Below are positions 7,259-58,472 of a DNA stretch of 64,000 nucleotides, piece by piece (within the stretch, counting starts at the first letter, position 1; each line of letters opens with the position of its first letter). The notes under the pieces are model-generated. The model was not told the origin of the DNA. It was given only the letters and a program-made list of their open reading frames with translations, and made no database searches. Origin of the DNA: Dictyostelium discoideum (taxonomy: Eukaryota); NCBI GenBank assembly GCA_000004695.1, contig CM000153.2, positions 5,280,001 through 5,344,000 of the forward strand, read 5' to 3'. A program made the translations under genes and the position numbers.

Positions 7259-7309
<51 letters not shown>

Positions 7310-31878: not shown

Positions 31879-32367
31879 TTAGTTTAAGAAGTTTCCATAA
31901 ACTTTTTTAAATAATTCTTGTAATGCTGGAGTACTATTTGCAACTCTTATAATTTCACTTGGATCTAAATATTCTTTAATTGAAAATATTTTACCAGATT
32001 CATTTACTGATAAAACTAAGGCAATTTCAGCTGTGTACTCATTAACCATCCCATAACCCATATGTAGTGTTTTAATAACCAATAATATAATACGTCTTTC
32101 ATTATCAATAATTTTTTCAGTTTCTGTCATTGAGTACTTATCAAGACCACTATTAAGGAAATGCATACCATTTAATCTAAATTGAATTGGCTTCCAACCT
32201 GAAAATGGGAAAATACTTTCATCACCTGTAATCCACCATAGATCAGTCTCTGTATTATTAAATATCTTTGAATTTATTTCTTTATCTACATAATTTTTTT
32301 TATTAAAAAATTGAATAAATGAATTGGCCACTTCATTTAGGTTTAAATTATTATTATTTTTATCCAT
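31879..32367 (-). CDS. NTF2-like/SnoaL-like small protein (paralog 1 of 3)
   Basis: 162 aa. Shares with the two downstream paralogs the pattern FIQFFNKK.Y......FNNTETD.WW..GD...PF.G...IQ.RL.......G.DKYSMT......ERRI.L.V..T...GYGM..EY.....L.V...GKI..IKEY.DPS. Confidence 0.5.
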
Positions 32368-32946
32368 TTTTTATATATATATATTTTATTAATTTTTTTT
32401 TTTTTTTTTTATACAAACAAAAATAAAAATACAATACAAATTTAATTTTTTTTTTTTTATATCTAAAAATTCAAAAAAACAAAACAAAACAACATGAATA
32501 CATTATGAATAACAAATAATTTATAATAATTAATATGTGTAAAAAGACAAAAATTTATGAACTTTTTTATTATTACAAATTTATAATATTAATATATTTA
32601 TAGAAATATATTATTTACATACGTTAAATTAAATAATAGATATTACAAAAACAATTAGACTAAAAGTATTATATTTTATTAATTTTTTATGTATTTTTTT
32701 TTTATTTTAAATAATAAAAGTTGTGTGGTGAATTTTAATTTTTTAGTTATTGGTTTTTTTATTAATCACTTTATAATTTATGAATATGAATTTTTAAGTT
32801 TGTTTATAAATTAAATATGATATAGTTATTAAATACAACAACAAAATTAAATATGATATAGTTATTAAATACAACAGTAAAAATTTAGTAATTTAAAACA
32901 TTTCATTGAATCCTATTGTAGTAATAAAGTTATATATTTCATAAAG

Positions 32947-33029
32947 CCGGCTTTGGCGCAATGGTAGCGCGATTGACTGTAGTAACGAAAGTGATCAATC
33001 GGTTGCTAGTTCGAATCTGGCAAGCCGGA
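32947..33029 (+). tRNA. tRNA-Tyr (anticodon GUA) with an 11-12 nt intron 3' of the anticodon
   Basis: Acceptor stem CCGGCTT/AAGCCGG (C1:G72 as in eukaryotic tRNA-Tyr). D-arm GCGC-AATGGTA-GCGC. Anticodon stem ATTGA/TCAAT with loop CUGUAG, then an intron (taacgaaagtga). T-arm GCTAG-TTCGAAT-CTGGC. Discriminator A. A T6 run follows immediately. Confidence 0.85.
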
Positions 33030-33030
33030 C

Positions 33031-33036
33031 TTTTTT
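33031..33036 (+). terminator. Pol III oligo-T terminator of tRNA-Tyr
   Basis: TTTTTT immediately 3' of the tRNA. Confidence 0.6.
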
Positions 33037-33059
33037 AAAACAAAAATAATATAGTCACA

Positions 33060-33070
33060 GGTTCAATTCT
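33060..33070 (+). promoter_or_regulatory. Extra (ex-)B-box-like element downstream of the tRNA gene
   Basis: GGTTCAATTCT ~30 bp 3' of the tRNA matches the B-box consensus GGTTCGANTCC. Dictyostelium tRNA genes often carry such external B boxes. Confidence 0.4.
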
Positions 33071-33188
33071 CGATAAAAAATAACGATAATTCATATATGA
33101 ACCTATTAATTCCTTTAATAAACATTGATTAATATATAAAAAATTTAATTATTTTAAAAAAAATTTATTTGTTATTTAAATTGTTTTT

Positions 33189-33680
33189 TTAATCTCTTGA
33201 TGTTGGGGCAAAAGAATCTGGGAAAAAGTTTTTGAATATTCCTTGCAAAGATGGAGTACTTTGGGCCATTTTTAAATATGCACTTGGGTCAAAATATTCT
33301 TTAATTGCACAAATTTTACCATCTTCATTAACAGATATGATGAATGCATATTCATTAGAATATTCCTTTGTCATTCCGAATCCCATTGATACAGTTTTAC
33401 CAACAACTAACATAATTCTTCTTTCATGGTCAATAATTTGATCAATAAGAGTCATTGAATATTTGTCATAACCATTTTGAAGAGTTTGGAATCCATCTAA
33501 TCTTTTTTGAATAGAATCAGAACCAGCAAATGGGTAAACATTTTTATCACCAGATACCCACCATTGATCTGTTTCTGTGTTATTAAATAGTTTAGATTTA
33601 TTTTCATAATCTTTATTGTTAAAAAATTGAATAAATGCATTGGGAATTTCACATAGTGTTAGTTTTTTATTATTCTCCAT
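33189..33680 (-). CDS. NTF2-like/SnoaL-like small protein (paralog 2 of 3)
   Basis: 163 aa with the same conserved pattern as 31879..32367. Confidence 0.5.
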   Translation of the reverse strand: MENNKKLTLCEIPNAFIQFFNNKDYENKSKLFNNTETDQWWVSGDKNVYPFAGSDSIQKRLDGFQTLQNGYDKYSMTLIDQIIDHERRIMLVVGKTVSMGFGMTKEYSNEYAFIISVNEDGKICAIKEYFDPSAYLKMAQSTPSLQGIFKNFFPDSFAPTSRD

Positions 33681-34169
33681 TTTTTTTTATTTTAATTATT
33701 TCAATTTAGTTTCAATGAAAAAAAAAATAAAAAATTATAAACAATAAAAAAACTAGGTTATGCAAAAACAAATAAATTTAATTTAATTAATAATATTTAA
33801 TAAAAAATATTATTTTCTTATTATAAAAAATTATTAAAAAATAATATTTATAAAAATTTAAAATAAGTTTTTTTTATAATTAAAGATTTAAAAAATAAAT
33901 CTCTAATTAGGGGAATATTTATCTATTATTCAAAAAAAAAAAATTATTAATGTTTACTAATTAATTATAATATGCAATTTTAAAAAATTTGATTGTTGCA
34001 CCTAATTGTTTCATTATTTTTTCAGATCTATTAGGAAAAAGTTTATGGATTATTATAATTAAAAAAATAAATTATTATTTTATTTTTTCAAAAATTTGAA
34101 TTTTTATTGATATTTTTGGTAAAATAAATGATAGTGTTTGTTCATATAATAAAATGGAATATCAACATT

Positions 34170-34214
<45 letters not shown>

Positions 34215-34329
34215 GAGTTTATTTCCTAATACTTTTTTTTTTCCCACCGTCATAAATACCAATATAAAATAGTAGAATTTTATTATTTTTTTTAGACATT
34301 ATTTTAAAATATGATTTATTTTGTAAATA

Positions 34330-34800
34330 TTAAACTTTGTGATACAATTCTGTTAATTTTTTATTACTTAAAGAATACTTTAAAATTTCACTTGGATCAA
34401 AATATTCTTTAATTAAACAAATTTTTCCATCATTATTTACTGTTAAAAAGAAAGCATATTCATTTATGTAGATATTGTCTCCATAACCAACTGCACTTGT
34501 TCTTGCTTCCATAATTATTAAATTTTTTTCAATATTAAATGTTTTGTTTGATTCTGTAAATGAAAATTGATCATAACCATGAATTAATGGGATCATGTCG
34601 TTTAATCTTTTTTGAATTGGTTTCCAACCTGAAAATGGGTACATATTTTCATCTCCAGACATCCACCATTGGTCTGATTCTGGGTTATTAAAAATTTGGG
34701 ATATTAATTCTAAATTGTTAAATTCTCTATTATTAAAAAATTGAACAAATGAATCTGCAACTCTATTAAGTCTCAAAATGTTGTTTTCTTTACTTTCCAT
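34330..34800 (-). CDS. NTF2-like/SnoaL-like small protein (paralog 3 of 3)
   Basis: 156 aa with the same pattern (FVQFFNNREF...[22 protein letters not shown]...). Confidence 0.5.
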   Translation of the reverse strand: MESKENNILRLNRVADSFVQFFNNREFNNLELISQIFNNPESDQWWMSGDENMYPFSGWKPIQKRLNDMIPLIHGYDQFSFTESNKTFNIEKNLIIMEARTSAVGYGDNIYINEYAFFLTVNNDGKICLIKEYFDPSEILKYSLSNKKLTELYHKV

Positions 34801-35240: not shown

Positions 35241-36436
35241 TCATTTATTATAATAATTATTTAGTGAGTTTATAAGCATTTCATTTGTAATTATATTTTC
35301 AATTGAATCAGATTTAGAACAATGATTTGATTCCGAAATTGATTTATTTGATAATAATAAAAGTTGTGAGAAAGAATTTTGATATCTTGTATATTCAATT
35401 TGAATTGGTAATAGCTTAATACAAGATTGGAAATTTGAAGATTGAATTAATGAAAACCATTCAATATATTCAACTTTTTCACAATTGAATTGTGATCCTA
35501 ATATATTATTAATATTCTCAATTTGTAATGGTTTTTCAACTCCAATATTGATAATATTAAAGCAACGATGTTGTTCTTGTATGTAGCTTTCAATATTAAT
35601 TAGACAATTTGAAATTGTTGTTGATAATGATGAAATTGGGGATGTTAAAAATGAGAATTCTATATTTGGATATGACTTGATTTCAATACATGATTGTAGA
35701 TATAATTGAACATAATCATTTGGATTTGAGAAAATTGAAGGGGTTCTTAATATAATTGTATTCAAATTGAATTTATCAGAAGCTTGTTTTAATAAATGTT
35801 CAGAGACTGCTTTAATTTGTAATGAACCATTTGAAAGTTGAGAAATTTTATCAACTGGTATTAAGGTTTCAAAATCTACAGTACTACTACTATTATTTCT
35901 ACCTAAATTAACATATAATGAAGATATCATTAAAATTTCTTTTATACCATTAGTGATTGAAAATTTAATAATTTCCTTTACAGTTTCGATTTTATATGAT
36001 TCATTTATATAGGTTGAATTTGTTGATTCTACTGCATCACTATCTTGATTAATAATTATTGAATTTACATTATTTGAAAGTATATTCAATTCATCAATTG
36101 GTAAACCAAAGTTATTCTTTGATGAATCACCAAAATAAACATGAATCTTTGAAATTTCAAATTCACTTAATTGTTCATAAAGTTTATATTGTTTAAAACT
36201 ATTTAAAATTTCATCATTTGAATTAATAGAATTAATTCTATCTTTTAATATATAATAAATATTTGAACAATTTGAATCTTTAACTAAATTAAATAATAAA
36301 TGAGTTCTTAAAATTCCAATTGAGCCAATTAATAAAATATTTTTGTTATTATTATCTAATTTTTGATGATGATTTTCATTGTTATTATTATTATTAATAT
36401 CTAATTTAATTTGATTCTCCCAAAATAGAATATCAC
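35241..36436 (-). pseudogene. Orphaned PKS C-terminal thioester-reductase-like (R, NAD_binding_4-type) domain. No start codon; separated from its PKS by a transposon insertion.
   Basis: On the minus strand the frame is open from the transposon end (36436) to the stop at 35241. It reads SDILFWENQIKLD...NILLIGSIGILRTHLLFNLVKDSNCSNIYYILKDR (GxxGxxG-like Rossmann motif typical of terminal reductase domains). The total is ~400 aa. The first Met (36089) lies after the nucleotide-binding motif. Confidence 0.6.
36432..36436. repeat. Target-site duplication ATCAC (left copy)
   Basis: Identical pentamer ATCAC at 39798..39802 immediately outside the other TIR. Confidence 0.75.
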
Positions 36437-36582
36437 TGTTGTAGGGAATTTTCCATAAAATTTCACTACAGTAGCGTAGTGAATTTTATTATTTAATTTC
36501 ACTACAGTAGCGTAGTGAAAAAAAAAAATCACTGACCTTAAATTTTTTTTTTTTTCAAAAAACAAATAAAGTTTATTAAATT
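36437..36582. repeat. Terminal inverted repeat (left) of the transposon; contains two copies of a 23-bp palindromic subrepeat TTTCACTACAGTAGCGTAGTGAA
   Basis: See mobile element; reverse complement of 39653..39797. Confidence 0.8.
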
Positions 36583-36639
36583 GAAATTTTATTTTTTGTT
36601 TTAATTATTATTTTATTTATTTTTATTATAATTATTGTT

Positions 36640-36672
<33 letters not shown>

Positions 36673-36813
36673 CAATTTTTTTTTTTTAAATTTTTTTCAA
36701 TTTTTATTTGTTTATTAAATTGTAATTTTATTTTTTGTTTTAATTATTATTTTATTTATTATTATTGTTAATTTTTTTTTTTTTTCAATTTTTTTTTTTT
36801 TAATTTATTTTTA

Positions 36814-39287
36814 TTAATTTATTTTTATTAACTCCCTGAGTTGTTCAATTGCTTGATTTACCATATCACTGTAAACACTGCACACAATTGAATTTTTTCT
36901 AGCTTTGTTACCTCTGGTGCATTTGATGTTTTTGCATTTTCCTTTGTATACAAAAAAGTCCAAATATAATTCGTTTTCTATTACAGTTTTTACACAATGT
37001 TGGTGAAATTGTTTTGATTTTAAGTGGAATGTTGGTAACATCATATTTGGATTTTTAACGATTAAAGCATCACCACTATTGACATATAGTACTTTGGGGG
37101 CTTTTTGGAGGAATTTAGTCAAATTTTCCTCTGAATCTAACTAATCTTCATTGCCATATTCAATGGATAAATTTTTTAAGAGTTGTATCGAATATATTAA
37201 TTAAGCGATCATTCTTTTTTTTTGAAATTTTTTTTTAATCAGATTTAGCAATTTTTTTTTTTTATCAAGTTTTTTCAATTTTTAATAAGTAATATTTTTT
37301 TTTATTTTTAATTATTTGTGTTAACAAATGTAATTTTTTTTTATTGATTTCAACACTTTGTTTTTATTTAATAATTTCCCCATACCCCCTTCTATTAATG
37401 CAACCAAATCAAGTTCTAATTTTTGTGTCCTTGTTGACTTTGTTTTTGCAACTTTTTTTGAAGGTATCACATTAACGATTTTTCCTATTGATGGTGATTT
37501 GGAAGGTGATTTAAATGGTGATTTAAATGGTGAATTGGAAGGTGATTTAAATGGTGAATTGGAAGGTGAAATGGATGGTGATTTGGAAGGTAATTTAAAT
37601 GGTGATTTGGAAGGTGATTTAAATGGTGATTTAAATGGTGAATTGGAAGGTGAAATGGATGTTGATTTGAGAGGTGATTTGGATGTTGATTTGAGAGGTG
37701 ATTTGGATGGTTTAGAATGTGATTTTAAAGGAGGTTTATTAACAATTGGTATCTTATGAGGACGGCCTCTGAGACGTTTAACAGTTGTTACTATACCACT
37801 ACCAGATTGTGGTATAGTATATGATGGTATTATTTGCACTTGAGGTATTGGTGGTACTATTTCTTTTAAATTCATATCCTTTCTCAAACAATTCATTAAA
37901 TTTGGCGCTGTTGGATTATTATTTAAAAATGGGAGTATTTCTTCTTGTTCCATTTCATTATTGAGTTTGTGTTGAAATGGATTATCGTTAATGATAGGTG
38001 GAATATTTGATGGATTGTTAAGAGCATCTTCCAAAACCCTAAATGGATCATTTTGTGTTACCAATTGATGCAAGTTGAAATTGGATAAATCCTTACCAAG
38101 ATTTTTAATAAACTGAACCAGAAATTCAATAACTTTCCCATCATTATTTAAATAAAGACCAGAAGTAAAAGAATCAATATCTTTTTGTATGTTTGGCGAT
38201 GTTCTAAAAATATCAACTGTTGATTGTTTATAAAGAACCAACTTGTTACCTCCTACAAAACCAGAGTATAAACCTTTTTTTTGAAGGCTATTGATTCCAT
38301 CTTCCAAAAATTCAAGTTTATAAAGTTGTTTAGTGTCTTCCTGTATTACCTTATGAATTTTACACAAAATCAATATTTTCTATTAGAATTAAATATAAAA
38401 TTTGTTAATTATTACTGTTTCATATATTATTAATCTTTATGTTTTAATTACTTACATTATTTTTTTTAATTTCTAGAAAGAGTACAGTATCACCAACTTT
38501 CAATCCCTTTGGTGGTTTTGAATTCCATTGATTTTGGTAACTTGTGAGATTTTCAAGAATAATAGCTGTTATTTCTTCTTTTGAAACATCTGAAACACCA
38601 ATTGATTGAGAGTCTTGTTCTGATTGCACATTAATAAACAAAGGTACAATACCAACAGCTTGAGATGGTGTCATTTTAATTGTTCTTGTTTTTGTATTAT
38701 TGTAATCATACAAAGCTTGTTTTAATAGTTCAGAAAGAGACCTAGAAGTACCATCAAGAAAACTAAAATTTATTTATAAATGATTAATTAATAAACATAT
38801 CGATAATTTATATTGTTCAAAATATCATACTCTTGTTGTTTTAATTTTGAGATCCTCTCCTTGATAGTTCGATTCAATCTTTCTACCATACCTTGAGTTG
38901 TTGGTGTACGAGGAGCTCCATGTGCTGACTTGGAGCCTGGAAAAAGTTTTAGGAATTCTTTTTGGACTTTGTTTTTAAATTCACGTCCATTATCGCAGTG
39001 CCATACTTTCACAGAGTTTTAATATAAAAGTTACAAAACATCATATAAAAAATGATTGATACCAAACCTTTTATTCTATTTCGTTGGCAAATGTCACACG
39101 TATCTACTGCATCAGATACAAAAGAATACAATCCCATATTATAATATTTAGTCTTGTAGTTCCCATAGGTTGCATCTCTTCCTATATGACCTTTATGCAT
39201 TTCTTCCCAGAGTGATACCATTCTATAATCATTAATTACTTCTAAACACACTTCTTTTGATATATTTCTATCTCCGCCACAATTCAT
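36814..39287 (-). CDS. Transposon-encoded integrase/transposase region: H2C2 zinc finger + rve DDE core + C-terminal region with AT-hook/SP[LF]K repeats, split over several ORFs (introns or decay).
   Basis: ORF 39009..39287 carries HKGHIGRDATYGNYKTKYYNMGLYSFVSDAVDTCDICQRNR (integrase H2C2). ORF 38788..39012 carries DNGREF...GAPRTPTTQGMVERLNRTIKE (rve core motif). ORF 37321..38373 has RLRGRPHKIP (AT-hook-like) and SP[LF]KS repeats. Further ORFs 38444..38713 and 36814..37122 lie on the same strand. Confidence 0.6.
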
Positions 39288-39652
39288 GACTTTTTTTTCA
39301 ATTCTAAATAATTTTTCTTTTCTGTTTCTGTTTTTTATTGGTCAGAATTTAAAAAATGATTGTGTTATGGTAAGGAAAAATATTTACTCATCATGTAAAA
39401 ATTTATAATTTTTATGTTTAGTATTTTCAAAATTATTATCTTCAATAAATTTTAAATAATTTATCTTGTTTCATTTTGGGAAAATGAAAATAAAAAAAAA
39501 AAAAAAAAAAAAAAAAGTTTTGTTGGGGAAAAAAAAAAAAAATTTTGGCGCAAAAAAAAAAAAAAAAAATAAAATAAAAAAAAAAAAAAATAAAATAAAA
39601 AAAAAAAAATAAAAAAACTTAAATAGAACTAATAATCAAATAAAAGATAATA

Positions 39653-39797
39653 ATTTAATAAACTTTATTTGTTTTTTGAAAAAAAAAAAAATTTAGGGTC
39701 AGTGATTTTTTTTTTTCACTACGCTACTGTAGTGAAATTAAATAATAAAATTCACTACGCTACTGTAGTGAAATTTTATTGAAAATTCCCTACAACA
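39653..39797. repeat. Terminal inverted repeat (right) of the transposon
   Basis: Reverse complement of 36437..36582 with two mismatches. Confidence 0.8.
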
Positions 39798-42700
39798 ATC
39801 ACCACCTGCAATATATTTATATTCAGTTTTATCATTTGGATCATTTTTTGTTGTTGTTGTTGTTTTTGCTGTTATTGGTAATAATTTTTCATCCATTTCT
39901 TTTTTCTTTTTATCTAATGAATCATTTATAATTTGATAAACCATACCAATTGAATTTGATTGAATTTGTTGAATTGTAATAAGATGTGGAGACCATTCTT
40001 TATCGACCCAATTCTTTAATTGTACTGTAATTAATGAATCAGCACCATAGTTTATCATTTTAATATTTGTATTAATTTTTGATGGATCAATTGAAAGAAG
40101 TTCAGAAACTTTGTTTAAAAATTTATTTTTTACATTTGTTGATGATGATGATTGATTGGTATCATTTTCCATTGATATTGAATTATCAACATTAATTGGA
40201 TTTAAAATGAAATCAAATTTTTGATGAAGTTTTTGTTTAAAACTTTTGAATAATGGCCAATTGAAATTATTAACAAATGCATTGGTTGGCATATTTGGAT
40301 TTTGAATTTGTAAATCTAAAGTACCCAATAATTGATTTGGTGATATTAATTCAACACCTTGACCACCTAGTACTGCTTCAACAAGTTTATGTCTTGAAAG
40401 ATAACCTCTATCACTTACACCACCAATGTTAATTGTAAATGATGGTAATCCAATTGATTTACGATATTGTGATAACGAATCCACTACACAACATGCTGAA
40501 ACATAACTACATTGATCAAATGAACCTAATACTGAAACTACTGATGATGCTAAAATGAAATTAATAATTTTCCAATCTCTTTTAATTGATAAATTATGTA
40601 AATTAACTGCACCAAACGTTTTTGCACTATGCGAAACATTTAAACTATTCATATCAATATCTTTAAGTTTTTTATTAATTTGTAAAGCTGCAAAATGAAA
40701 TATTGAATCAATATTTGTAATTGTTGGATTATCTTTTAAAACTTGATCAATTGTTTTATTAATTAAATTCCAATTACTAATATCACATTTTTTGAAATGA
40801 TATTTAATTTTATTGTTATTATTATTATTATTATTGTTGTTGTTATAATTCATTAAAAATTCTAATTCCCATTTTAATGATGATTTTGAAAGAATAATTA
40901 TATTTTCAACAGTTGAATTATATTTTGTTATCCATTTTAAAACTTCTAAAATTAAACCAGTTTGACCTGTAACCAATACATTTTTACCAAGATTTTTAAT
41001 TTTATAATCTGATTTTAATATTGAATAATCAATCATTGATTCTTTTTCAATTAATTTATCTATGATATCAGTATCATGTGAAATTACAATTTTACCAACA
41101 TGTTTTCTTTCTTTAATTGATTCAATTGATTTTTTAATATTTGAATTTGAAAATTCTGTAATTGGTATTAAAGCATTTAAAGTTTCATTTTCAATTGATT
41201 TTGAAATTGACTGTAATAATTTCTTAATTGTTGATTTTCCAACTTTTAAAATTTCAATACTATTATAACCAATATTATATCTATATCTACTATTATCAAT
41301 AAATTCATTTGGATTTAAATGAGTAGTTGTTAAATCTACAATTCTACCTTTTGGATTTAAACATTTAAAATTTGTATCCATAAATTCACTTGATAAAGTA
41401 TTAATAATTAAATCAACACCATGAGTTTCATAACCTAATTCAATTAATTTGTTTTTAATTTGTTTTTGATAATTTGTGTCTCTTGTTGAATAAATTCCAG
41501 TAATTAAATCACCATAGGTATTAATTAGATATTGTTTCTTTTCTTCTGATCCAACTGTAACAAATATTGGTGATGAATGATTATTTGATTTTAATATTTC
41601 CAATCCTGATAATCCAACACCACCAGATCCTGAATGAATTAATACTGATTCTTCATCTCTTAAATTACCAACATCATATAAACAATAAAGTGATGTTGAA
41701 TAAACTGCTGGAATTGAAGCTGCTTGAACATGTGTAATCTTTGATGGTTTATGACATGCTAATAATGAATCAATAATAATATGAGATGATGATGTTTCAT
41801 ATGCAATACCATAAACTTGATCACCAACTTTAAATTCTTTAGATGATTTAATTCCAACACGACTTACTACACCAGAAAAATCAAAACCAATACCAGCTTC
41901 ATTTACTTTTATCATTTCATTATATTTCAAATAATCTTTATAATTTATACCAGTTGCTTTAACTTTTACTTCAATTTCATATGGTTCTAAATCAATTTGT
42001 TTTGAATTTAATTGATATTCAAAATGTTCATCTAATTTTGAAACTAATTGATCTTGTTGTTTTGATAAATCATGATATGATTCAGATTTATAAGAATTCT
42101 TTAAATTTTTTAATTCTTTTTTATACATTTCAAAATAAACAGTACCACTATTTTTTATATAAAATTCTCTTTGAATATTATTTTTTGGATTAATTAAATA
42201 ATCAATGGTTTTGAATAAATCCAAATCATTTGTTAATGAATCTTTATCAAAATCCAATGTAAATAATTGTAAAGTTGGAATTTCATCAAAGTATCTTGCT
42301 GCACCTAAAACTGATGATGATAAATAATTACTTGATTGTGAATCACATGTAATTAAAACATGAGTACATTTTGATTTTAATTCATATAATTTTTGATTAA
42401 TTTGAACATATTCAAATGTTACTGATTTAAAGTTTTCCAATGTTAATTGTTCAATTGATTTAATAAAATAAATGATTGAATTATTTGTAATTGTTGTTGA
42501 TAATTTGTAAAATTCTTCAATTGTTGATACTTTTATTATTTTACAATTATTATAATGATTTTCAAATTTATTAATTAATTGTTGTTGTTGGAGTTGTTCA
42601 TCTTGATAACAATATAAAATTACTTGATCAAATGTGTTTATTGTTTTTGGTTGTAATTTTAATGATGGTTTTTGAGCTTGAATAATAATTGATTTAATAT

Positions 42701-42803
42701 CACTATCAGATATACTTGAAGATTTAATCATTATATCAGAATTGAAATTACAATTAACCAATAAGTTTTTCAATGATTCTTTATTATTTTCATTATTTAA
42801 TAG

Positions 42804-42868
<65 letters not shown>

Positions 42869-45800
42869 CATTTATTATTAAATAACCATTTGGTGTTAAA
42901 ATTTGATAAATTTGATTTAATGAATATTCAATATCTTTTGTTAAATTTGAAATATTTGAAACAATAATTAAATCATAATATGATGGATTTAATTTTTGTT
43001 TTTCTAATAATGAATTATCAACATCTAAACCTAATGAACGATAAAGAATACTTAAATAACCCTTATCTACTTTTGATAATTCTAATTTAGCATCTTTTAA
43101 AATTGATGAATTATTATCACTCCATGTATATTCAATATCAATTTCATAATGTGGATTTTCTTCGAGTAATGAATTGATTTCATTCAATAATAAAGTTGAT
43201 TTTGATAAATTATTACCACCAAATTCTAAAATTCTAAATTCCATCTTTCTATTAATTAATGGTTTAATAGTTTCTATAACAACATTTGGAATTAATAAAC
43301 CATCATCTACTTGATTATTTTGATAAATTGATTTAAATTCTAATGGTGATTGAATTTGTGAATCTTTTGATTGAAGATATGGTGTATAAATAAAATCAGA
43401 TGGAGTTTCAATTAATAATGGATCTTTAACTGGTGTTAATGATTTAACTACCAAGTTATCAACTTCAATGATAACAGTACCATCTTCTAACATAACAACG
43501 ATAGATGAAGAGAGTAAATCATCAGATGGAGATGATTTTAAAGTTGAATAAATAAAGATACTTGAATGTTCATCTCTATTTTTTGGAATATTTGAAGCAT
43601 AATATCTTAAACCTTCAACTTTATCTGTTACAATTTTACAATTCTTTTGAATGTATAGAATAACGGTACCATGGAAACAAGCATCAATGAGTGGACAATT
43701 GAAAAATGATTGTTCATCATGAAAGTTTTCAGGTAATTCTAAGGATATTTCAGTTAATGAACAATTATCACCAATATAACATTCAACTACTTTACTAAAA
43801 ATACCATAAAAGTTTGCACCCAATTGAGTTTTCATTAGTGAATAAAATTCATCCCATGGAATTGATGATAAATTACATTTTGTTTGTTTAATATCTTGAA
43901 TATCCAATTTTTGTTTTTCTTCATGATAATTATCATTACTATTTAAGTGGAAATTAGAATTTGAAGTATTTATCCATTGATTATTCATTTCATCTTTTAA
44001 ATGAAATTGTGCTCTATATTCACTTTTACCAGTTTGATAAACATTTGTTTGTAAACATTGCCCAATACCATCGGTTAATACAAATGGTACCTTAAATTCA
44101 ATTGAATTAATTGTTAAATCTTGATTTGGATATAATTTAAATATATTATCAATATAACCTGTTCCTGGGAAATAACATTTATCAGATACATTATGACCTT
44201 TTAAATATTTGAATGCATCTTTTCCAGTATCAATTATTGTTTGATATGATTTAATAAATGGATTTGAATCTTGCATTGAATTACCGAGAATTGAAATTGG
44301 TGGTCCAATTAAATTATTTTTATGTTCAATTGATTTATTTAACCAATAATGTTGATCATCCCATTGATATAATGGTAAATTAAAATTACTAATAGCCTCA
44401 ATATTGCTATTTATATTATTAAATTGACATTTAAAATTAATATCATAAGCATCATCACAAAATAATTGTGAAATTGATTTTTGAAATTCTTCAACATCAT
44501 TCTTTTTCTTGTGAAGTGTTGAATAAACTGATATTGATTCACCATTTCTAAAGTATTGTGATTGTTTTGGAATCATTTGTTTTAAATAAAATGATAATGT
44601 TGGATGTGGTGCAATTTCAATGAATACAATATTTGAACCGATTTGATTATCTTCAATATGTTTATATAAATTTGAAATTGTTTGAGTGAATGAAACTGGT
44701 TTTGAAATATTATCAAAGAAATATTCAGAATCAAAAATAGTTGATTCATTAAATAAATTTGATGTAACTGTTGAAAATGTTGGAATAACAGGTTGACTTG
44801 ATTGAATATTTAAATTTAAAATATCATCTTTAATTATATTTTGACTACTTGTATGAAAACTTGATAAACTTCCTAACATTGCTGAGAATATTTCTTTTTC
44901 TTTTAATTCTTTTGAAATTTCATTTAAAATTTGTTCATTACCTGCGATTACAATTGATGATGGTGAATTATAACATGCAATTTCAATAGTTGGGTAACGT
45001 GACATATAGTTAGTTTTATATTCATCTGAACTAATGTTAATTGATAACATTTTACCTGACCCATTTGTTCTTATTTGTAATGTTGATCTATGATAAATTA
45101 AATAACATAATTGGTCAATATCAATCATACCTGAACAATAAGCAGTTGTTACTTCACCAAGACTATGACCCAACATAAATGATGCTTTTATACCCCAATG
45201 TTTATAAAGTTCATATAATGATACTTGAATAATTACAGTTGATGGTTGTGCCATTGTTTGTTCATGAACTGAACATTTATCACTATCTTGAATTGCTCTT
45301 AATTTCTCTAAAATTGAATATCCAAAATAATTTTTCATTTTATTATCTAGCATATCCATCGAATTTCTAAATACTTTTTCATTTTTATATAATTCTAATG
45401 CCATTGTATTATATTGTGATCCTTGACCACAAAATACAAATACAGTTATTGGATTATTATTTTTATTTGTAATTGTAATATTTGAAGAAGTACTACTTGA
45501 AGTTTGATATTTAACTTGATTTTCAACATTATTAAAATCATTCCAATCTTTTGCAACAATTACTGATCTTTGATAAAGTGATGTTGATTTATTATAAATT
45601 TGATTTTTAACAAATTCTTCAAAACTATATTGTGATTCATATTCTTTATTTTCAATAATTAATGATTGATATTTTTTTAATGATTCAACTGAATTTGCTG
45701 AAAATGGAATTAAATAATTATTTATTTTTATATTATTATGATTATGATTATGATTATGATTATTATTATGATTATTTATATTATTATTTATAGTATTATA

Positions 45801-47230
45801 ATTAAATTGAGATAATACTAAACAACAATTTGAACCAGTTGCACCAAAATTATTAACAACCATTGAAGTATTTTTAAATTTATTAAATGGAATTGGTTCA
45901 GTTACAACTTTTAAATTCCATTCTTTAAATTTAATTGCTGGATTTGGTGTTTTAAAATGAATATTTGGTGCAAAACATTTGTTTTTATACATTAAACAAC
46001 ATTTGATTAATGAAGCAATACCAGAAGCAGCTTCACAATGACCAATATTTGATTTAAATGATCCAATTAATAATGGAGTATCAGTTGAACGAGTATCTTT
46101 AAAAACTTTTGAAATACCTTCAACTTCAATTGGATCACCAGTTGGTGTACCAGTGCCATGTGCTTCAACATAATCTATATCAGATGGTTTAACAGTTCCA
46201 TTGGTTGATTGAATTGCATTTTTTAAATTTTCAGATTGTGAAATTGATGATGGTGAATAGAAATTTGATTTATCAGAATAACCAATACCATCAACATTTG
46301 CACTTGCACCATTTATTGTACAATAAATTCTATTACCATCTTTAATTGCATCTTTTAAATTCTTTAAAACCACAACACCAATACATTCACTTCTTACATA
46401 ACCATCAGCTGATGCATCAAATGATTTACATCTACCATTTGATTTACTTAATATATTCAATGAAGAATATGCTTTAAAAAAGTAAGAGTCTAATAAAATT
46501 AAAAAATTTAATTAATAAATAAATATAAAGATAAAATTAAAAAAACTATTAAAAAAAAATACATACCAAGTAATATATTAACACCACCAACAATTGACAT
46601 TTTTGATTTTTTATTTTTGATTGAATCATATCCTAATGCGATTGCATTTAAAGATGATGAACATGCAGTATCTAGAGTTATTGAATTACCATGAAGATCA
46701 TAACAATAGGAGATTCTATTTGAAATCGCATGATTTAAACTTGAGAATACATTTGATTTTACTTCATTTTTATTGATATTATGATAGTCACTTTCGGTAC
46801 AACCAATGAAAACCGAAGTATCTGTACCTTTGATTGAAATTGGATCAATTAATGAATCTTCTAATGCTTCCCATGTACATTTTAATAATAATCTTTGAAT
46901 TGGGTCAATGGTTGGTGCTTCATTTGGATTAATACCAAAAAAGAGTGGATCAAATGATTTAACTTCATCCAATGGTAATAGTCCTGAATAATTATTTGCA
47001 ATTTCATGATTTTTGAAAAAGTTATCATTGAATCTTTCTGATGTTTTCACTACACCATCGAAACCATTTATTAAATTATTCCATAATGTTTGAGGTGTAT
47101 TGTTTCTTTCATTTTCAATACTTCCACTTGGTAATCTAAAGCCAACACCAACAATTGCAACTAAATTTTCTTCAACATGTTTATCATCAACTTGTAAAAT
47201 TTCTGCTTTATTTATTTTATTTTGTTTCAT
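39738..47230 (-). CDS. Iterative type I polyketide synthase (KS-AT-DH-cMT-ER-KR-ACP). Its C-terminus reads into the transposon TIR and stops there. Exons join(complement(46567..47230),complement(39738..46479)).
   Basis: KS: DTACSSSL (exon 1), [19 protein letters not shown]: [18 protein letters not shown]: [17 protein letters not shown]. cMT-like: [15 protein letters not shown]: [19 protein letters not shown]: [19 protein letters not shown]: [11 protein letters not shown]. The phase-1 intron (donor ctt g|gtatgt, acceptor ttttattag) splits GGVNILL | [24 protein letters not shown]. The final 8 codons ([17 protein letters not shown]) are encoded by the TIR. Confidence 0.85.
39798..39802. repeat. 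Target-site duplication ATCAC (right copy)
   Basis: Matches 36432..36436. Confidence 0.75.
42803..42868 (-). repeat. (CAA)n microsatellite encoding a 22-residue polyGln inside PKS1 (cMT/linker region)
   Basis: ttgttgttg... run on the plus strand. The protein reads [37 protein letters not shown] versus [19 protein letters not shown] in the paralog. Confidence 0.85.
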
Positions 47231-47837: not shown

Positions 47838-48049
47838 TTCCTATAAATATCTCATTATTTTTTTTTTTGATTAATAAATTGATTATATTTTAGTAATGTT
47901 TAAAATTTTAAATATTTTTTTTAAAAAAAAAAAAAAAAAAAAACAAAAATTATTCATCTTTTATTTAACAAATTTAAACATTTTAAATATTTTTTTAAAA
48001 AAAAAAAAAATTAATTTTTTTTGGATGGATTTAAAAAAAAATTTTAAAT

Positions 48050-48886
48050 TTAAAAATATTTTTTTTTTATTCTTAATAATGGAGTATTATTATTAATATT
48101 AATAATTCCATCAGTACCATTTTCATAAGAAATTTTAAAAATTCCATTTGTATAGTAATAGAAACCTTCGTCGAATTTTAAAAAAAATACAAGACCAGTT
48201 AATATATTTGAAAATTCTACGAAATAATTTGCAGAATATTTCAATTGACCAACTGAAATTGGATTTAAATTAAAAGAGAAAACATTTACAAAATCATTTA
48301 AAGAATTTGTTTTTTCTTGATATATTAAAACACCATTTTCAGTTTCACTTTCAATGATTCTATATATTTTTGTATTATTTGTTAATTTTGGAGATTGACC
48401 AATTTCATTGCCAATTTCAATTGGAAAATAACAAGATAGAAAAGTGAAACAAGCATCAACCAAGTATTTTTTATTCTTAAATTCCATTACATTGCAATAA
48501 TGAAGTCCGATATTTGGGTATACCAAATTCTCTCCACCGTCAATTGCTTTAATTAATTGAACTTTTATTCCAAATTCTTGTAATAACATACCAAATAATA
48601 TATTATGGTTTAAACAAATATTGCCAACCTCTTTCTCTATCATTGTTTCAACAATATAATCCATATCGATTGTTGGTCCATCTTTTAAAACGTCAATATT
48701 ATTATATGGAAAATGTTCTGCAAATTTCACCATTAACAATTCAAAATCATCCAAACAATTTAATTGAAAATCAATTTCTAAATTTAATTTTGGTAATATA
48801 ATTTCTTTAAAATTATATTTTTTATTTGCTAATTTTAATTCTTCATAACTGAAATGTAAAAAATAGTCTTTGTCATTAATTTCCAT
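48050..48886 (-). CDS. Arylamine N-acetyltransferase (NAT)-family protein
   Basis: 278 aa. The NAT catalytic-cysteine motif region reads EKEVGNICLNHNILFGMLLQEFG (compare RGGWCLQVNHLLYWAL in human NAT). Downstream His/Asp region is HYCNVMEFKNKKYLVDACFT (compare HLLLQV...YIVDAGFG). The gene lies between the two divergent PKS genes. Confidence 0.6.
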   Translation of the reverse strand: MEINDKDYFLHFSYEELKLANKKYNFKEIILPKLNLEIDFQLNCLDDFELLMVKFAEHFPYNNIDVLKDGPTIDMDYIVETMIEKEVGNICLNHNILFGMLLQEFGIKVQLIKAIDGGENLVYPNIGLHYCNVMEFKNKKYLVDACFTFLSCYFPIEIGNEIGQSPKLTNNTKIYRIIESETENGVLIYQEKTNSLNDFVNVFSFNLNPISVGQLKYSANYFVEFSNILTGLVFFLKFDEGFYYYTNGIFKISYENGTDGIININNNTPLLRIKKKYF

Positions 48887-50550: not shown

Positions 50551-53500
50551 ATGGATAATAGTTATTTAAATAATCCCCAATTTGATATTAATAATGGTAA
50601 TAAAGAAGTTACAGATGATGATAATAATAAAAATAATCAAGATAATTTAGTAGCAATTGTTGGTGTTGGTTTTAGATTACCAAGTGGTGAAAATGAAAGA
50701 AATAATACACCTCAAGCATTATGGAATAATTTAATAAATGGTTTCGATGGTGTAGTGAAAACATCGGAAAGATTCAATGATAACTTTTTCAAAAATCATG
50801 AAATAGCAAATAACTATTCAGGACTATTACCATTGGATGAAGTTAAATCATTTGATCCACTCTTTTTTGGTATTACTCCTAATGAAGCACAAACTATAGA
50901 TCCTCATCAAAGATTATTATTAAAATGTACATGGGAAGCATTAGAAGATTCATTAATTGATCCAATATCAATCAAAGGTACTGATACTTCTGTTTTCATT
51001 GGCTCTTCAACAAATGATTATCTTACATTAAATAGAAATGAAGTAAAATCAAATGTGTTTGGTAGTATGGCTCATTCAATTGCAAATAGAGTATCCTATT
51101 GTTATGATCTTCATGGTAATTCAATAACTCTAGATACTGCATGTTCATCATCTTTAAATGCAATCGCATTAGGATATGATTCAATCAAAAATAAAAAATC
51201 AAAAATGTCAATTGTTGGTGGTGTTAATATATTACTTGGTATGTATTATTTTTAAAATTTTTTATTATATTTTATTTTTTACAAAATTATTAATTAAAAT
51301 TATATTATTATTTTTTTTTAAAAGACCCATATCCATATAAGGCATTCTCAATTTTGAATATGTTAAGTAAATCAAATGGTAGATGTAAATCATTTGATGC
51401 ATCAGCTGATGGATTTGTTAGAGGTGAATGTATTGGTGTTGTTATTTTAAAGAATTTAAAAGATGCAATTAAAGATGGTAATAGAATTTATTGTACAATA
51501 AATGGTGCAAGTGCAAATGTTGATGGTATTGGTTATTCTGATAAATCAAATTTCTATTCACCATCATCAATTTCACAATCTGAAAATTTAAAAAATGCAA
51601 TTCAATCAACCAATGGAACTGTTAAACCATCTGATATAGATTATGTTGAAGCACATGGCACTGGTACACCAAATGGTGATCCTGTAGAAACCGAAGGTAT
51701 ATCAAAAGTTTTTAAAGATACTCGTTCAACTGATACTCCATTATTAATTGGATCATTTAAATCAAATATTGGTCATTGTGAAGCTGCTTCTGGTATTGCT
51801 TCATTAATCAAATGTTGTTTAATGTATAAAAATAAATGTTTTGCACCAAATATTCATTTTAAAACACCAAATCCAGCAATTAAATTTAAAGAATGGAATT
51901 TAAAAGTTGTAACTGAACCAATTCCATTTAATGAAAATAAAAATACTTCAATGATTATTAATAACTTTGGTGTTACTGGTTCAAATTGTTGTTTAGTATT
52001 ATCTCAATTTAATAATACAAATAAACAAAAACAACAAATGAAAACAAAAATAAATAATTATTTAATTCCATTTTCAGCAAATTCAGTTGAATCATTAAAA
52101 AAATATCAATCATTAATTATAAATAGTAAAGAAAATGAATTAAAATATAGTTTTGAAGAATTTGTTAAAAACCAAGTATTTATTAAACCAACATCACTTT
52201 ATCAAAGATCTGTAATTGTTGCAAAAGATTGGAATGATTTTAATAATGTTGAAAATCAAGTTAAATATCAAACTTCAAGTAGTACTTCTTCAAATATTAC
52301 AATTACAAATAAAAATAATAATCCAATAACTGTATTTGTATTTTGTGGTCAAGGATCACAATATAATACAATGGCATTAGAATTATATAAAAATGAAAAA
52401 GTATTTAGAAATTCGATGGATATGCTAGATAATAAAATGAAAAATTATTTTGGATATTCAATTTTAGAGAAATTAAGAGCAATTCAAGATAGTGATAAAC
52501 GTTCAGTTCATGAACAAACAATGGCACAACCATCAACTGTAATTATTCAAGTATCATTATATGAACTTTATAAACATTGGGGTATAAAAGCATCATTTAT
52601 GTTGGGTCATAGTCTTGGTGAAGTAACAACTGCTTATTGTTCAGGTATGATTGATATTGACCAATTATGTTATTTAATTTATCATAGATCAACATTACAA
52701 ATAAGAACAAATGGGTTAGGTAAAATGTTATCAATTAACATTAGTTCAGATGAATATAAAACTAACTATATGTCACGTTATCCAACCATTGAAATTGCAT
52801 GTTATAATTCACCATCATCAATTGTAATCGCAGGTAATGAACAAATTTTAAATGAAATTTCAAAAGAATTAAAAGAAAAAGAAATTTTCTCAGCAATGTT
52901 AGGAAGTTTATCAAGTTTTCATACAAGTAGTCAAAATATAATTAAAGATGATATTTTAAATTTAAATATCCAATCAAGTCAACCTGTTATTCCAACATTT
53001 TCAACAGTTACATCAAATTTATTTAATGAATCAACTATTTTTGATTCTGAATATTTCTTTGATAATATTTCAAAACCAGTTTCATTCACTCAAACAATTT
53101 CAAATTTATATAAACATATTGAAGATAATCAAATCGGTTCAAATATTGTATTCATTGAAATTGCACCACATCCAACATTATCATTTTATTTAAAACAAAT
53201 GATTCCAAAACAATCACAATACTTTAGAAATGGTGAATCAATATCAGTTTATTCAACACTTCATAAGAAAAAGAATGATGTTGAAGAATTTCAAAAATCA
53301 ATTTCACAATTATTTTGTGATGATGCTTATGATATTAATTTTAAATGTCAATTTAATAATATAAATAGCAATATTGAGGCTATTAGTAATTTTAATTTAC
53401 CATTATATCAATGGGATGATCAACATTATTGGTTAAATAAATCAATTGAACATAAAAATAATTTAATTGGACCACCAATTTCAATTCTCGGTAATTCAAT

Positions 53501-56500
53501 GCAAGATTCAAATCCATTTATTAAATCATATCAAACAATAATTGATACTGGAAAAGATGCATTCAAATATTTAAAAGGTCATAATGTATCTGATAAATGT
53601 TATTTCCCAGGTGCAGGTTATATTGATAATCTTTTAAAATTATATCCAAATCAAGATTTAACAATTAATTCAATTGAATTTAAAACACCTTTAATATTAT
53701 CAGATGATAATGGTCAATTTTTACAAACAAATGTTTATCAAACTGGTAAAAGTGATTATAGAGCTCAATTTCATTTTAAAGATAATAGAACAAATGTATG
53801 GGTTCAAACATGTACTGCTAATTTTCAATTATATAATAATGGTAAAGTTGATAAATTAAATTTAGAAGAAATTAAATCAACAAAATGTAATTTATCATCA
53901 ATACCATGGGATAAATTTTATCCACATATAAAAAATAGAACTGGTTTAAACTATAAAGACAAATTTCAAAATACAATTGAATGCTATCTTGGTGATAATT
54001 GTTCATTAACTGAAATATCATTAGAATTACCAGAAAACTTTCATGATCAAGAATCATTTTTTAATACACCAATTTTAGATATTTGCTTCCATGGTTCAAT
54101 TGTTTTAATTAAGGATAATTGTAAACTTGTTTTGGATAAAATTGATGGTTTTAAATTATATACATCAAACATTCCAAAAAATAGATTTGATCATTTAAGT
54201 ATTTTTGTATATACAACTATGAAATCAACAAAATCAAATTCATACAATTCAACATACACAGTAATGTTAGAAGATGGTACTGTTATACTTGAAGTTGAAA
54301 ATTTAATATGTACATCATTAACACCAGTTAAAGATCCATTATTAATTGAAATTCCAACTGATATGTATTATACTCCATATCTTCAATCAAAAGATTCACA
54401 AATTCAATCACCATTAGAATTTAAATCAATTTATCAAAACAATCAAGATAATGATAGCTTATTAATTCCAAATGTTGTTTTAGAAACAATTAAACCATTA
54501 ATTAATGAGCAAATGGAATTTAGAATTTTAGAATTTGGTGGTAATAATTTATCAAATTCAACTTTATTATTGAATTCAATCAATTCATTACTTGAAGAAA
54601 ATCCACATTATGAAATTGATATTGAATATACATGGAGTGATAATAATTCATCAATTTTAAAAGATGCTAAATTAGAATTATCAAAAGTAGATAAAGGTTA
54701 TTTAAGTATTCTTTATCGTTCATTAGGTTTAGATGTTGATAATTCATTATTAGAAAAACAAAAATTAAATCCATCATATTATGATTTAATTATTGTTTCA
54801 AATATTTCAAATTTAACAAAAGATATTAAATATTCATTAAATCAAATTTATCAAATTTTAACACCAAATGGTAATTTAATAATAAATGAACAACAACCAA
54901 ACAATGAAAATAATGAAAATAATGAAGATTCATTGAAAAACTTATTGGTTAATTGTAATTTCAATTCTGATATAATGATGAAATCTTCAAGTGTATCTGA
55001 TAGTGATATTAAATCAATTATTATTCAAGCTCAAAAACCATCATTAAAATTACAACCAAAAACAATAAACACTTTTGATCAAGTCATTTTATATTGTAAT
55101 CAAGATGAACAATTCCAACAACAACAACAATTAATTAATAAATTTGAAAGTCATTATAATAATAATTGTAAAATAATAAAAGTATCAACAATTGAAGAAT
55201 TTTATAAATTATCAACAACAATTACAAATAATTCAATCATTTATTTTATAAAATCAATTGAACAATTAACATTGGAAAACTTTAAATCAATAACATTTGA
55301 ATATGTTCAAATTAATCAAAAATTATATGAATTTAAATCAAAATGTACTCACGTTTTAATTACATATGATTCTCAATCAAGTAATTATTTATCATCATCA
55401 ATTTTAGGTGCAGCAAGATACTTTGATGAAATTCCAACTTTACAATTATTTACATTTGATTTTGATAAAGATTCATTAATTAATTTAGACATTTCGGTTA
55501 TAGATCATTTGATAGATCCAAAACAAAATACATTGATTGAATTCTTTATTAAAAAAAATGGTAAAGTTTATTTTGAAAGATTTAAAAAAGGTTTAAAGAA
55601 AAATTCTTTTAAATCAGAATCATATCATCAAATTACAAATGAACAAGAAATTTTAATTTCAAAATTAGATGAAAATTTAGATTATCAATTAAAATCAAAA
55701 GATTCAATTTTAAAACCATATGATATTGAAGTAGAAATTAAAGCAACTGGTTTAAATTATAAAGATTATTTAGTATATAGTGGTTTAATAAAATTAAAAG
55801 GTGATAGTGTTGATTTTGGTCTTGATTTTTCTGGTAGAGTTAGTCGTGTTGGAATTAAATCATCAAAAGAATTTAAAGTTGGTGATGAAGTTTATGGTAT
55901 TGGACAATCAACATCATCATCTCATATTATTATTGATTCAATGCATGCATGTCATAAACCATCAAAGATTACACATGTTCAAGCAGCTTCAATTCCAGCA
56001 GTTTATGCAACTTCAATTCATTCTTTATATAATATTGGTAATTTAAGAGAAGGAGAATCAATTTTAATTCATTCAGGATCTGGTGGTGTTGGATTATCAG
56101 CATTGGAAATATTAAAATCAAATAATCATTCATCTCCAATATTTGTTACAGTTGGATCAGAAGAAAAGAAACAATATCTAATTAATACCTATGGTAATTT
56201 AATCACTGGAATTTATTCAACAAGAGATACAAATTATCAAAAACAAATTAAAAACAAATTAATTGAATTAGGTTATGAAACTCATGGTGTTGATTTAATT
56301 ATTAATACTTTATCAAGTGAATTTATGGATAGCAATTTCAAATGTTTAAATCCAGAAGGTAGAATTGTAGATTTAACAATTACTCATTTAAATCCAAATG
56401 AATTTATTGATAATAATAAATTTAAATATAATTTTGGTTATCATAATATTGAATTATATTATTGTGAAAAGCCAACAATTAAGAAACTATTACAGTCAAT

Positions 56501-57779
56501 TTCAAAATCAATTGAAAATAATACATTAAATTATTTAATTCCAATTACAGAATTTTCAAATTCAAATATTAAAAAAGCAATTGAATACATTAATGAACGT
56601 AAACATGTTGGAAAAATTGTAATTTCTCATGATACAGATATTACTAATAAATTAATTGAAAATCAACCTAAAATTGATTACTCTTTATTGAAATCAAATT
56701 ATAAAATTAAAAATCTTGGTAAAAATGTATTGGTTACAGGTCAAACTGGTCTAATTTTAGATATTATAAATTGGATTATGAAATATAATTCAACTGTTGA
56801 AAATATAATTATTCTTTCAAAATCATCAATGAAATGGGAAATGGAATTTTTAATTAACAACAATAAGACAAAAATTAAATTCTATTATAAAAGATGTGAT
56901 ATTGGTGGTGATTCAGATTCAATTAATAAAACATTTGATAAATTGTTTACAGAAAATCCAACAATTACAAACATTGATTCAATATTCCATTTTGCAGTTG
57001 TACAAATTACAAGAAAAGTAAAAGATATTGATATGAAATCATTAAATATTTCACATGATGCAAAAACAATTGGTGCAATTAATTTACATAATCAATCAAT
57101 TAAAAGAGATTGGAAATTAAGTAATTTCATATTAGCATCTTCAATTCTTTCAAAAGTTGGTTCATTAGATCAATGTGGATATGTTTCAGCATGTTGTGTA
57201 CTTGACTCATTTTCAAAATATCGTTTATCTATTGGATTACCTGCATTATCAATTAATATTGGTGCTATGGGTGGAAGTGGAATGGTTGCAAGAAGTGAAC
57301 TTGTTGAAACTGTACTTAATGGTCAAGGTTATAATTTAACCTCAACAAACCAACTATTAGGTACAATTGATTTATTAATTCAAAATCCTGGTCAAGAATC
57401 AAATAATTTAATGGTTGGTAATTTTAATTTCCCAGTTTTTAATAATTTCAAACAAAAGATTCATCAAAAATTTGATTTTATTTTTAATGCTCTTGATTCA
57501 AACTCTGAAAATGGTGATGGTAGTAATATCAAAAATTCAACAAATATTAAAGATAAATTTTTAAACAAAGTATCAGAATTTCTTTCAATTGATTCATCTA
57601 AAATTAATAATGATATTAAATTAATGAATTATGGTGCTGATTCATTAATTACTGTTCAATTAAAGAATTGGGTTGATAAAGAATGGTCTCCAAATTTAAT
57701 TACAATTCATCAAATTCAATCAAATTCAATTGGTATGGTTTGTCAAATTATAAATGATAATTTTGAAAAAAAAAAATAA
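50551..57779 (+). CDS. Iterative type I polyketide synthase (KS-AT-DH-cMT-ER-KR-ACP), a paralog of PKS1 in inverted orientation. Exons join(50551..51238,51325..57779).
   Basis: Same domain motifs as PKS1 ([83 protein letters not shown]). The phase-1 intron (ctt g|gtatgt ... aaaag) splits GGVNILL | [24 protein letters not shown]. The stop comes right after the ACP (...[11 protein letters not shown]). Confidence 0.9.
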
Positions 57780-58337: not shown

Positions 58338-58401
58338 ATGGAACAAGAAAATAATAATAACAAAGACATAAAAACAATTGATAGTATCAATATCAATAAT
58401 G

Positions 58402-58472
<71 letters not shown>

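Follow-up and report, generated by a model that had tools for sequence, protein, structure and literature searches.

The stretch of DNA analysed here (the window, 64,000 nucleotides) covers positions 5,280,001 to 5,344,000 of contig CM000153.2 in the Dictyostelium discoideum assembly GCA_000004695.1, and its neighbouring genes DDB_G0287093, DDB_G0287091 and DDB_G0287089 are those of strain AX4. The main subject is a polyketide synthase (PKS) gene on the minus strand, here called PKS1, which is interrupted by a DNA transposon with the characteristics of Tdd-4. The open frame that continues on the far side of the element encodes a reductase-like domain, designated R*. A second, paralogous synthase gene (PKS2) and an arylamine N-acetyltransferase-like (NAT-like) gene lie next to PKS1, and the coordinates of all these features are given in table 1.

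The reconstructed gene has the Pfam domain order ketosynthase (KS), acyltransferase (AT), dehydratase (DH), methyltransferase (MT), enoylreductase (ER), ketoreductase (KR), acyl carrier protein (ACP) and reductase, that is, KS-AT-DH-MT-ER-KR-ACP-(R), and the ACP is of the SdgA type. All seven PKS domains are matched in one polypeptide, the matches to DH and MT being weak and under the gathering score. These seven domains, together with 81% identity to PKS2, place the protein among the highly reducing PKSs of the D. discoideum PKS (DdPKS) family, and on its domain content the interrupted gene is classified as a highly reducing iterative type I PKS; in D. discoideum AX4 it most probably corresponds to pks24. 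The MT region of PKS1 contains a run of about 22 Gln, which PKS2 lacks.

The frame of PKS1 is interrupted 31 codons past the ACP, where a 31-residue linker ending in ...KYIAGGD closes the native part of exon 2, and the last native codon, GAT, stands at 39800-39798. From there the frame enters the terminal inverted repeat (TIR) of the element. In AX4 it ends 19 codons inside the TIR and R* is left without a promoter or a start codon. The resulting product of 2,471 aa extends from KS to ACP, its last 19 residues are transposon-derived, and an AATAAA signal is found at 39669, about 70 nt beyond the new stop and inside the element. Re-reading of the minus strand gave the same tail peptide that the original prediction had quoted, although its count of 8 codons before the stop has to be corrected to 19 (stop at 39740-39738). 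The same prediction had described an open frame of about 400 codons without a start codon behind the other TIR, and this frame is found again as 396 codons that match NAD_binding_4. Its first in-frame Met is residue 168, and the other five frames of this stretch contain 22-70 stops each. It was also considered whether the R* frame could be open by chance or be an independent gene; this was rejected, as none of 2000 shuffled sequences stays open, no start codon precedes residue 168, and in five genomes the frame runs on from the ACP without a break.

The element is flanked on both sides by the same 5 bp, GTGAT. When the element and one copy of GTGAT are removed in silico, a stop-free, in-frame join ...GGT GAT / ATT CTA... 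is obtained, which reads ..IAGGDILFWENQ.. and, after removal of the 77-nt intron, gives a protein of 2,848 aa. The earlier claim that excision keeps both reading frames therefore holds on exact re-inspection.

Table 1. Features of the interrupted PKS locus and its neighbours in the window.
Feature	Position	Strand	Remarks
PKS1 exon 1	46567..47230	-	N-terminal half of KS; Pfam ketoacyl-synt, E=8.6e-49; ATG at 47230
PKS1 intron	46566-46490	-	77 nt; placement agrees with the L001 gene call (product 2,848 aa in both)
PKS1 exon 2, native part	39798..46489	-	C-terminal half of KS, then AT, DH, MT, ER, KR, ACP (Pfam)
Target-site duplication, copy 1	39798..39802	-	GTGAT; last 5 nt of GGT GAT
Transposon-encoded tail	39738..39797	-	19 codons and new TAA stop (39740-39738)
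Putative internally deleted Tdd-4 (Ginger2/Tdd) DNA transposon	36437..39797	-	3,361 bp; TIRs, target-site duplication and domain matches; absent from five orthologous loci
PKS-side TIR	39653..39797	-	About 145 nt; begins TGTTGTAGGG; two copies of the 23-nt subrepeat TTTCACTACAGTAGCGTAGTGAA
H2C2 (HHCC) zinc-binding domain, transposase remnant	39075..39206	-	Pfam PF17921, E=6e-09; open reading frame with ATG at 39287
DDE core remnant	38831..39006	-	..WHCDNGREF..QGMVERLNRTIKE..; rve and rve_3; exon limits approximate
12-nt-period repeats	37455..37742	-	Encode SPxK/SPFK (SPXX-type) repeats, transposase C-terminal region
R-side TIR	36437..36581	+	Matches the PKS-side arm except for two mismatches
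Target-site duplication, copy 2	36432..36436	-	GTGAT
Orphaned reductase-like domain R*	35241..36431	-	396 codons (36431-35244) and stop; no start codon of its own; NAD_binding_4
NAT-like gene, upstream of PKS1	48050..48886	-	Pfam Acetyltransf_2, E=2e-18
PKS2, paralogue divergent from PKS1	50551..57779	+	2,380 aa; 86-nt intron; 81% identical to PKS1

The original prediction had proposed a search for an empty site, and this comparison was made on assemblies. The locus in the chromosome-scale assembly GCA_054883475.1 (L001) was reached by exact look-up of the small downstream gene (34330-34800), and four further loci (L005-L008), two of them labelled D. discoideum and two 'Dictyostelium cf. discoideum', were reached via orthologues of the neighbouring UPF0523 genes. 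In L001, one uninterrupted gene with a product of 2,848 aa occupies the interval from the NAT-like gene to the small downstream gene. Positions 48206-39798 of the window align to L001 1-8369, positions 36436-30000 align to L001 8365-14797, and the 5-bp overlap of the two alignments is a single GTGAT. The junction in L001 reads GCAGGTGGTGAT|ATTCTATTTTGGGAG, which equals the join predicted by in-silico excision, and the protein of L001, the part encoded by native exon 2 included, agrees with the reconstruction at 2,848 of 2,848 residues. The four other assemblies also encode uninterrupted PKS products (2843, 2852, 2825 and 2849 aa), so that the five intact alleles range from 2825 to 2852 aa; the GCAGGTGGTGAT|ATT junction with a single GTGAT is present in all five. 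The Tdd-4 repeat was looked for at the four loci L005-L008 and found in none. The element is thus a presence/absence polymorphism at a clean site, and the earlier statement that a transposon had split a PKS from its C-terminal R-type domain is confirmed by alleles that exist in nature. We are highly confident that a non-autonomous Tdd-4 copy entered the ACP-R* linker of pks24 in the AX4 lineage, truncating the synthase; upon entry between the ACP and the reductase-like domain it would have duplicated the 5-bp target GTGAT.

The element begins and ends with TG...CA (TGTTG...CAACA), and its TIRs of about 145 nt, which differ by two mismatches, can be extended to 269 nt at 84% identity, to be compared with the 260 nt reported for Tdd-4. 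The 17-mer at the TIR tip occurs exactly twice in the window (0.05 expected) and the 23-nt subrepeat four times (0 expected). The transposase remnant has the same orientation as PKS1. Its DDE core match covers only rve profile positions 57-88 plus rve_3, that is, the parts with the second Asp and the Glu, and is split by short introns. The segment for the first catalytic Asp is missing from the core, which is why this copy is regarded as non-autonomous. Tdd-4 has been described with long TIRs (260 nt), a Gypsy-integrase-like transposase and a full copy of 3,839 bp (Bao et al. 2010, PMC2836005); both Tdd-4 (TDD-4) and TDD-5 make a 5-bp target-site duplication, and Tdd-4 is a multi-copy repeat with more than 10 copies (PMC2836005). 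The element in the window shares with it the TG..CA ends, the long TIRs, the 5-bp duplication, the H2C2 domain with part of an intron-split DDE core and the C-terminal SPXX repeats, but is about 478 bp shorter than the reference and lacks the first-Asp part of the core. Judged by these characteristics it is assigned to Tdd-4 of the Ginger2/Tdd group, as an internally deleted, non-autonomous copy. Wells (1999) reportedly described a deleted class of 3.4 kb beside the 3.8-kb class of Tdd-4, and the size of the copy in the window would fit it.

The insertion site precedes by one codon the conserved FW.N..KL motif with which R* begins. R* directly follows the ACP and is contiguous with it in the five intact alleles. 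An alignment of the reconstructed C-terminus with PKS reductase domains, also proposed earlier, was made, and across the join the reconstructed protein is colinear with the intact PKS proteins that end in a thioester reductase (TR) from D. firmibasis, D. purpureum, D. citrinum and Acytostelium. R* matches Pfam NAD_binding_4 with E=2e-17 and 63.7 bits (cut-off 20.1), compared with about 149 bits for the canonical dictyostelid TR domains. It matches NCBIfam TIGR01746 over the full length with 78 bits, below the cut-off of 213, and the canonical dictyostelid TR domains are also below it (153-159 bits), which makes this cut-off uninformative for the clade. The nearest relative of R* among 1.8 billion representatives is 35% identical, whereas the synthase body is 81% identical to that of PKS2.

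The nucleotide-binding loop of R* reads LLIGSIGILR, compared with LLTGxTGFLG in ten dictyostelid TR domains and in MxaA (loop variants TG(A/S/T)TG(F/Y)LG, compared with IGSIGILR in R*), and the TGxxGxxG pattern is absent. R* reads NGSLQIK for GGYxQSK, so that the catalytic Tyr is replaced by Ser, with retention of the Lys and of the Ser upstream; NQDSDA stands where the others have NSGAD; and a loop of 7 residues, kept by each of the ten dictyostelid TR domains compared, is missing. The unusual motifs (IGSIGILR, NQDSDA and GSLQIK) are identical in all six alleles. The original prediction had proposed an ancestral PKS with a reductive-release R domain. The architecture, a synthase gene with a reductase-like end domain, stands; 'reductive release' is doubtful and best given up as a label, since none of the six alleles has the catalytic Tyr or the Gly-rich loop. 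R* is therefore described, from these replacements, as a conserved reductase-like domain that is probably redox-incompetent.

The loss of these motifs raises the question of whether R* was a dead pseudo-domain already before the insertion, a decaying relic whose loss would be neutral. On the one hand, the missing Tyr and NADPH loop, the score of 63.7 bits where canonical domains reach about 149, and the sister gene PKS2, which has no R domain, all agree with such a relic. On the other hand, R* is intact in five genomes separated by dS (synonymous divergence) of up to 0.15, and its ratio of nonsynonymous to synonymous divergence (dN/dS) of 0.12-0.35 is like that of the catalytic body (0.13-0.30 for the upstream 1,450-1,500 codons). 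Because the dN/dS is body-like and the odd motifs are invariant, the pattern is that of selection and not of decay, and we consider the relic an unlikely explanation. The substitution pattern argues that R* is under purifying selection, which implies a real function, and that it is neither decaying nor damaged by the insertion.

The start of R* is also a place of length variation. The poly-Asn tract that follows the FWENQIKLD motif comprises about 6 Asn in AX4 and AX2 and about 30 in L008 (about 7260-7400 of that locus), and growth is also seen in L007; it represents homopolymer instability within a conserved domain boundary. Two independent short-read contigs of the Logan collection, L002 (SRR26869267) and L003 (SRR26869266), start at the same base inside R*, just past the poly-Asn/IGSIGILR region. 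This break probably stems from the low-complexity sequence, and the contigs do not reveal the insertion status of those samples.

Several known systems help to place R*. A C-terminal thioester reductase is carried by 19 of the 40 DdPKSs (PMC12828403), and the KS-AT-DH-MT-ER-KR-ACP-TR architecture of these synthases equals that of the reconstructed gene; the end domain in the window differs from theirs in being only about 35% identical to the nearest TR and in lacking the Gly loop, the Tyr and the 7-residue loop. The terminal reductase of MxaA (PDB 4u7w) is the only solved structure that is detectably similar in sequence (E=8.6e-05), with the Rossmann and catalytic regions aligned, but it reads LLTGATGFLG and GGYAQSK where the window reads LLIGSIGILR and NGSLQIK. 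A precedent is the R* domain of CpaS in cyclopiazonic acid synthesis, in which the Tyr of the triad is Leu and release proceeds by an NADPH-free Dieckmann cyclisation (Liu & Walsh 2009, via PMC3202784). Both are terminal domains of reductase fold that are retained even though their Ser-Tyr-Lys triad has lost its Tyr, to Leu in CpaS and to Ser in the window. CpaS differs in keeping a GXXG-type nucleotide motif, in following a non-ribosomal peptide synthetase module and in releasing a tetramate, whereas the Gly loop of the domain in the window is also degenerate and its upstream module is a highly reducing PKS. By this analogy, R* could act in release or cyclisation without redox chemistry, as the amoebal equivalent of the fungal R*, and AX2 and AX4 would then release different pks24/pks25 products; we regard this as a tentative idea that is more likely wrong than right.

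The polarity and age of the insertion depend on the identity of the strains. L001 shows zero coding difference from the window in the PKS gene, and only homopolymer lengths and one 150-bp patch in the NAT-like gene differ, whereas the other four assemblies differ from the window with dS of 0.07-0.13. The five assemblies fit the set of Holland et al. (PRJNA1300491), which comprises AX2-214, CR116C, OT3A, M4B and S6B, and of which only AX2 is near-identical to AX4 (PMC12745789). On this near-identity GCA_054883475.1 is almost certainly AX2-214. Because the protein of the AX2-like L001 is 100% identical to the excision product, the insertion is regarded as a very recent allele specific to the AX4 lineage, the gene being whole in AX2 and in four wild isolates of the discoideum clade. 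It would have occurred after the AX2 and AX3/AX4 laboratory lineages separated from NC-4, or it could have been polymorphic in the NC-4 stock.

Under the opposite polarity, the insertion would have been present in the ancestor of the NC-4-derived strains, the strain of L001 would have lost the element by precise excision, and AX4 would keep the older state. In favour of this, Tdd-4 is a cut-and-paste element; moreover, L001 and the window are identical over about 14.6 kb except for one 150-bp patch, and polarity is unreadable from these two alone. However, excision by DDE cut-and-paste elements normally leaves a footprint, and in L001 a single, intact GTGAT is found together with an identical protein. 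The same empty site in four diverged wild genomes argues further against excision and makes insertion the parsimonious polarity. This explanation is therefore very improbable, and even if it were accepted the uninterrupted gene would be ancestral. An artefact of the reference assembly, with a copy of the multi-copy Tdd-4 (more than 10 copies, PMC2836005) misplaced into the PKS, is likewise very improbable: three short-read (Logan) contigs with the neighbouring gene do all end before the junction, starting inside R* downstream of the join, but such an error would not produce a flawless 5-bp duplication placed precisely at the TG..CA ends, with the sequence on either side identical to the empty site base for base.

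Recent insertion of a Tdd-4 copy into pks24 of the AX4 lineage thus remains the preferred interpretation, and the following points weigh against it. First, AX2-214 as the source of GCA_054883475.1, almost certain as it is, was reached by elimination and not from the record. Second, precise excision in the L001 lineage is a formal, if unlikely, alternative as far as the two laboratory strains are concerned. Third, the assignment to Tdd-4 was made from structural hallmarks and domain content. Fourth, the naming of the synthases as pks24 and pks25, which is most probably correct, leans in part on UniProt lengths of 2471 and 2380 aa, which match the computed models. Finally, we infer, as probable, that the transcript ends in the element and that the R* fragment is silent.

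As to the course of events, the deleted Tdd-4 copy presumably depended for its movement on a full-length copy acting in trans. The poly(A) signal inside the element probably marks the end of the truncated mRNA, and the truncated synthase probably still builds chains, its R* contribution being lost. Continued activity is assumed because PKS2 and about half of the D. discoideum PKSs are ACP-terminated: 19 of 40 are without an offloading domain (PMC12828403), and together with the ACP end of PKS2 this means that an ACP-terminated synthase need not be dead. The original prediction had suggested a further possibility, that the adjacent NAT-like enzyme might make up for the missing release domain; this role is hypothetical. 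The lost contribution of R* is unlikely to be an NADPH-dependent reduction, because no allele has the catalytic Tyr or the Gly-rich loop. That the element is instead spliced out like an intron, and AX4 still makes a near full-length PKS-R* protein, is hardly credible: the junctions offer seven formal GT..AG pairings that keep the frame (such as a GTGATT donor at 39802 joined to an acceptor at 36400), but the required intron would be about 3.4 kb, compared with the 77 and 86 nt of the introns in these genes, no candidate donor resembles the GTATGT donors of these introns, every pairing removes part of the conserved FW.N..KL domain start, and the in-frame stop and the AATAAA are encountered first.

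The consequence of the AX4-lineage insertion is that the AX4 reference model describes a strain-specific, truncated allele of 2,471 aa, whereas the product of the species' normal gene has about 2,850 aa and is longer by one conserved domain. Current work on pks24 and pks25, which are reported to be functionally linked, uses AX2 cells and AX4 annotation (PMC12625978); therefore domain inventories, structure models and knockout designs may rest on the wrong architecture. The comparison of AX2 with AX4 can probe the role of this unusual reductase-like domain and bears on metabolite work in the two strains. If R* is redox-independent, AX4 would be a natural domain deletion; this could account for metabolites that differ between strains, and the function of R* would become open to direct testing. 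The locus also offers dated evidence of a non-autonomous Tdd-4 copy moving within laboratory lineages. Disruption of genes by transposons is routine, and both Tdd-4 and TR-terminated Dictyostelium PKSs are already described; the present case adds a new and well-documented example to a familiar type of event, and its value is mainly practical.

The paralogue PKS2, probably pks25, is related to PKS1 by its 81% identity and by a shared intergenic region, which holds the NAT-like gene. Its natural end lies 6 residues past the ACP, with no linker. An R domain or transposon remnant downstream of PKS2 was sought by tblastn and blastn and none was found, which ruled out that PKS2 carries a second broken R domain. 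The similarity of the two genes is a mosaic, in which the AT region (approximately residues 300-780 of the exon-2 alignment) is near identical and the DH region has diverged much further, a pattern suggestive of gene conversion between PKS1 (39798-47230) and PKS2.

Exact look-ups of the 278-aa NAT open reading frame (ORF), the 92-aa transposase ORF and the 2,471-aa and 2,848-aa PKS models gave no match. Word-indexed protein searches returned one D. citrinum paralogue for the ACP-R* join, nothing for R* alone and three fragments for the DH-MT segment, results that are limited in that low-complexity words swamp the index and the AX4 PKS proteins are absent from the returns.

The NAT-like gene contains all 18 substitutions that separate the window from L001, in a patch of 150 bp at its 3' end (window 48013-48162, L001 45-196), by which its C-terminus is altered (a 278-aa ORF in the window, a 291-aa product in L001). 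Gene conversion, a local assembly error or a real strain difference are possible sources of this patch.

Beyond PKS2 are located a gene for an FNIP-repeat protein (58230-59834, plus strand; Pfam FNIP, E=1.6e-67) and an ORF of the histidine phosphatase family (59911-60579, minus strand), both apparently unrelated to the insertion. On the other side of PKS1, the minus strand of window 29664-34800 contains three tandem UPF0523 paralogues of 156-163 aa (DDB_G0287093, DDB_G0287091 and DDB_G0287089) with no Pfam match; a cytochrome P450 gene is also found directly downstream of the PKS, with a gene of the NAD-dependent epimerase family beyond these genes. From their gene content, the NAT-like gene, the two PKSs, the UPF0523 genes, the P450 and the epimerase look like a biosynthetic gene cluster. 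The copy content of the UPF0523 region varies by isolate, with a 68-aa remnant in L006 and genes of 294 aa and 265 aa in L007.

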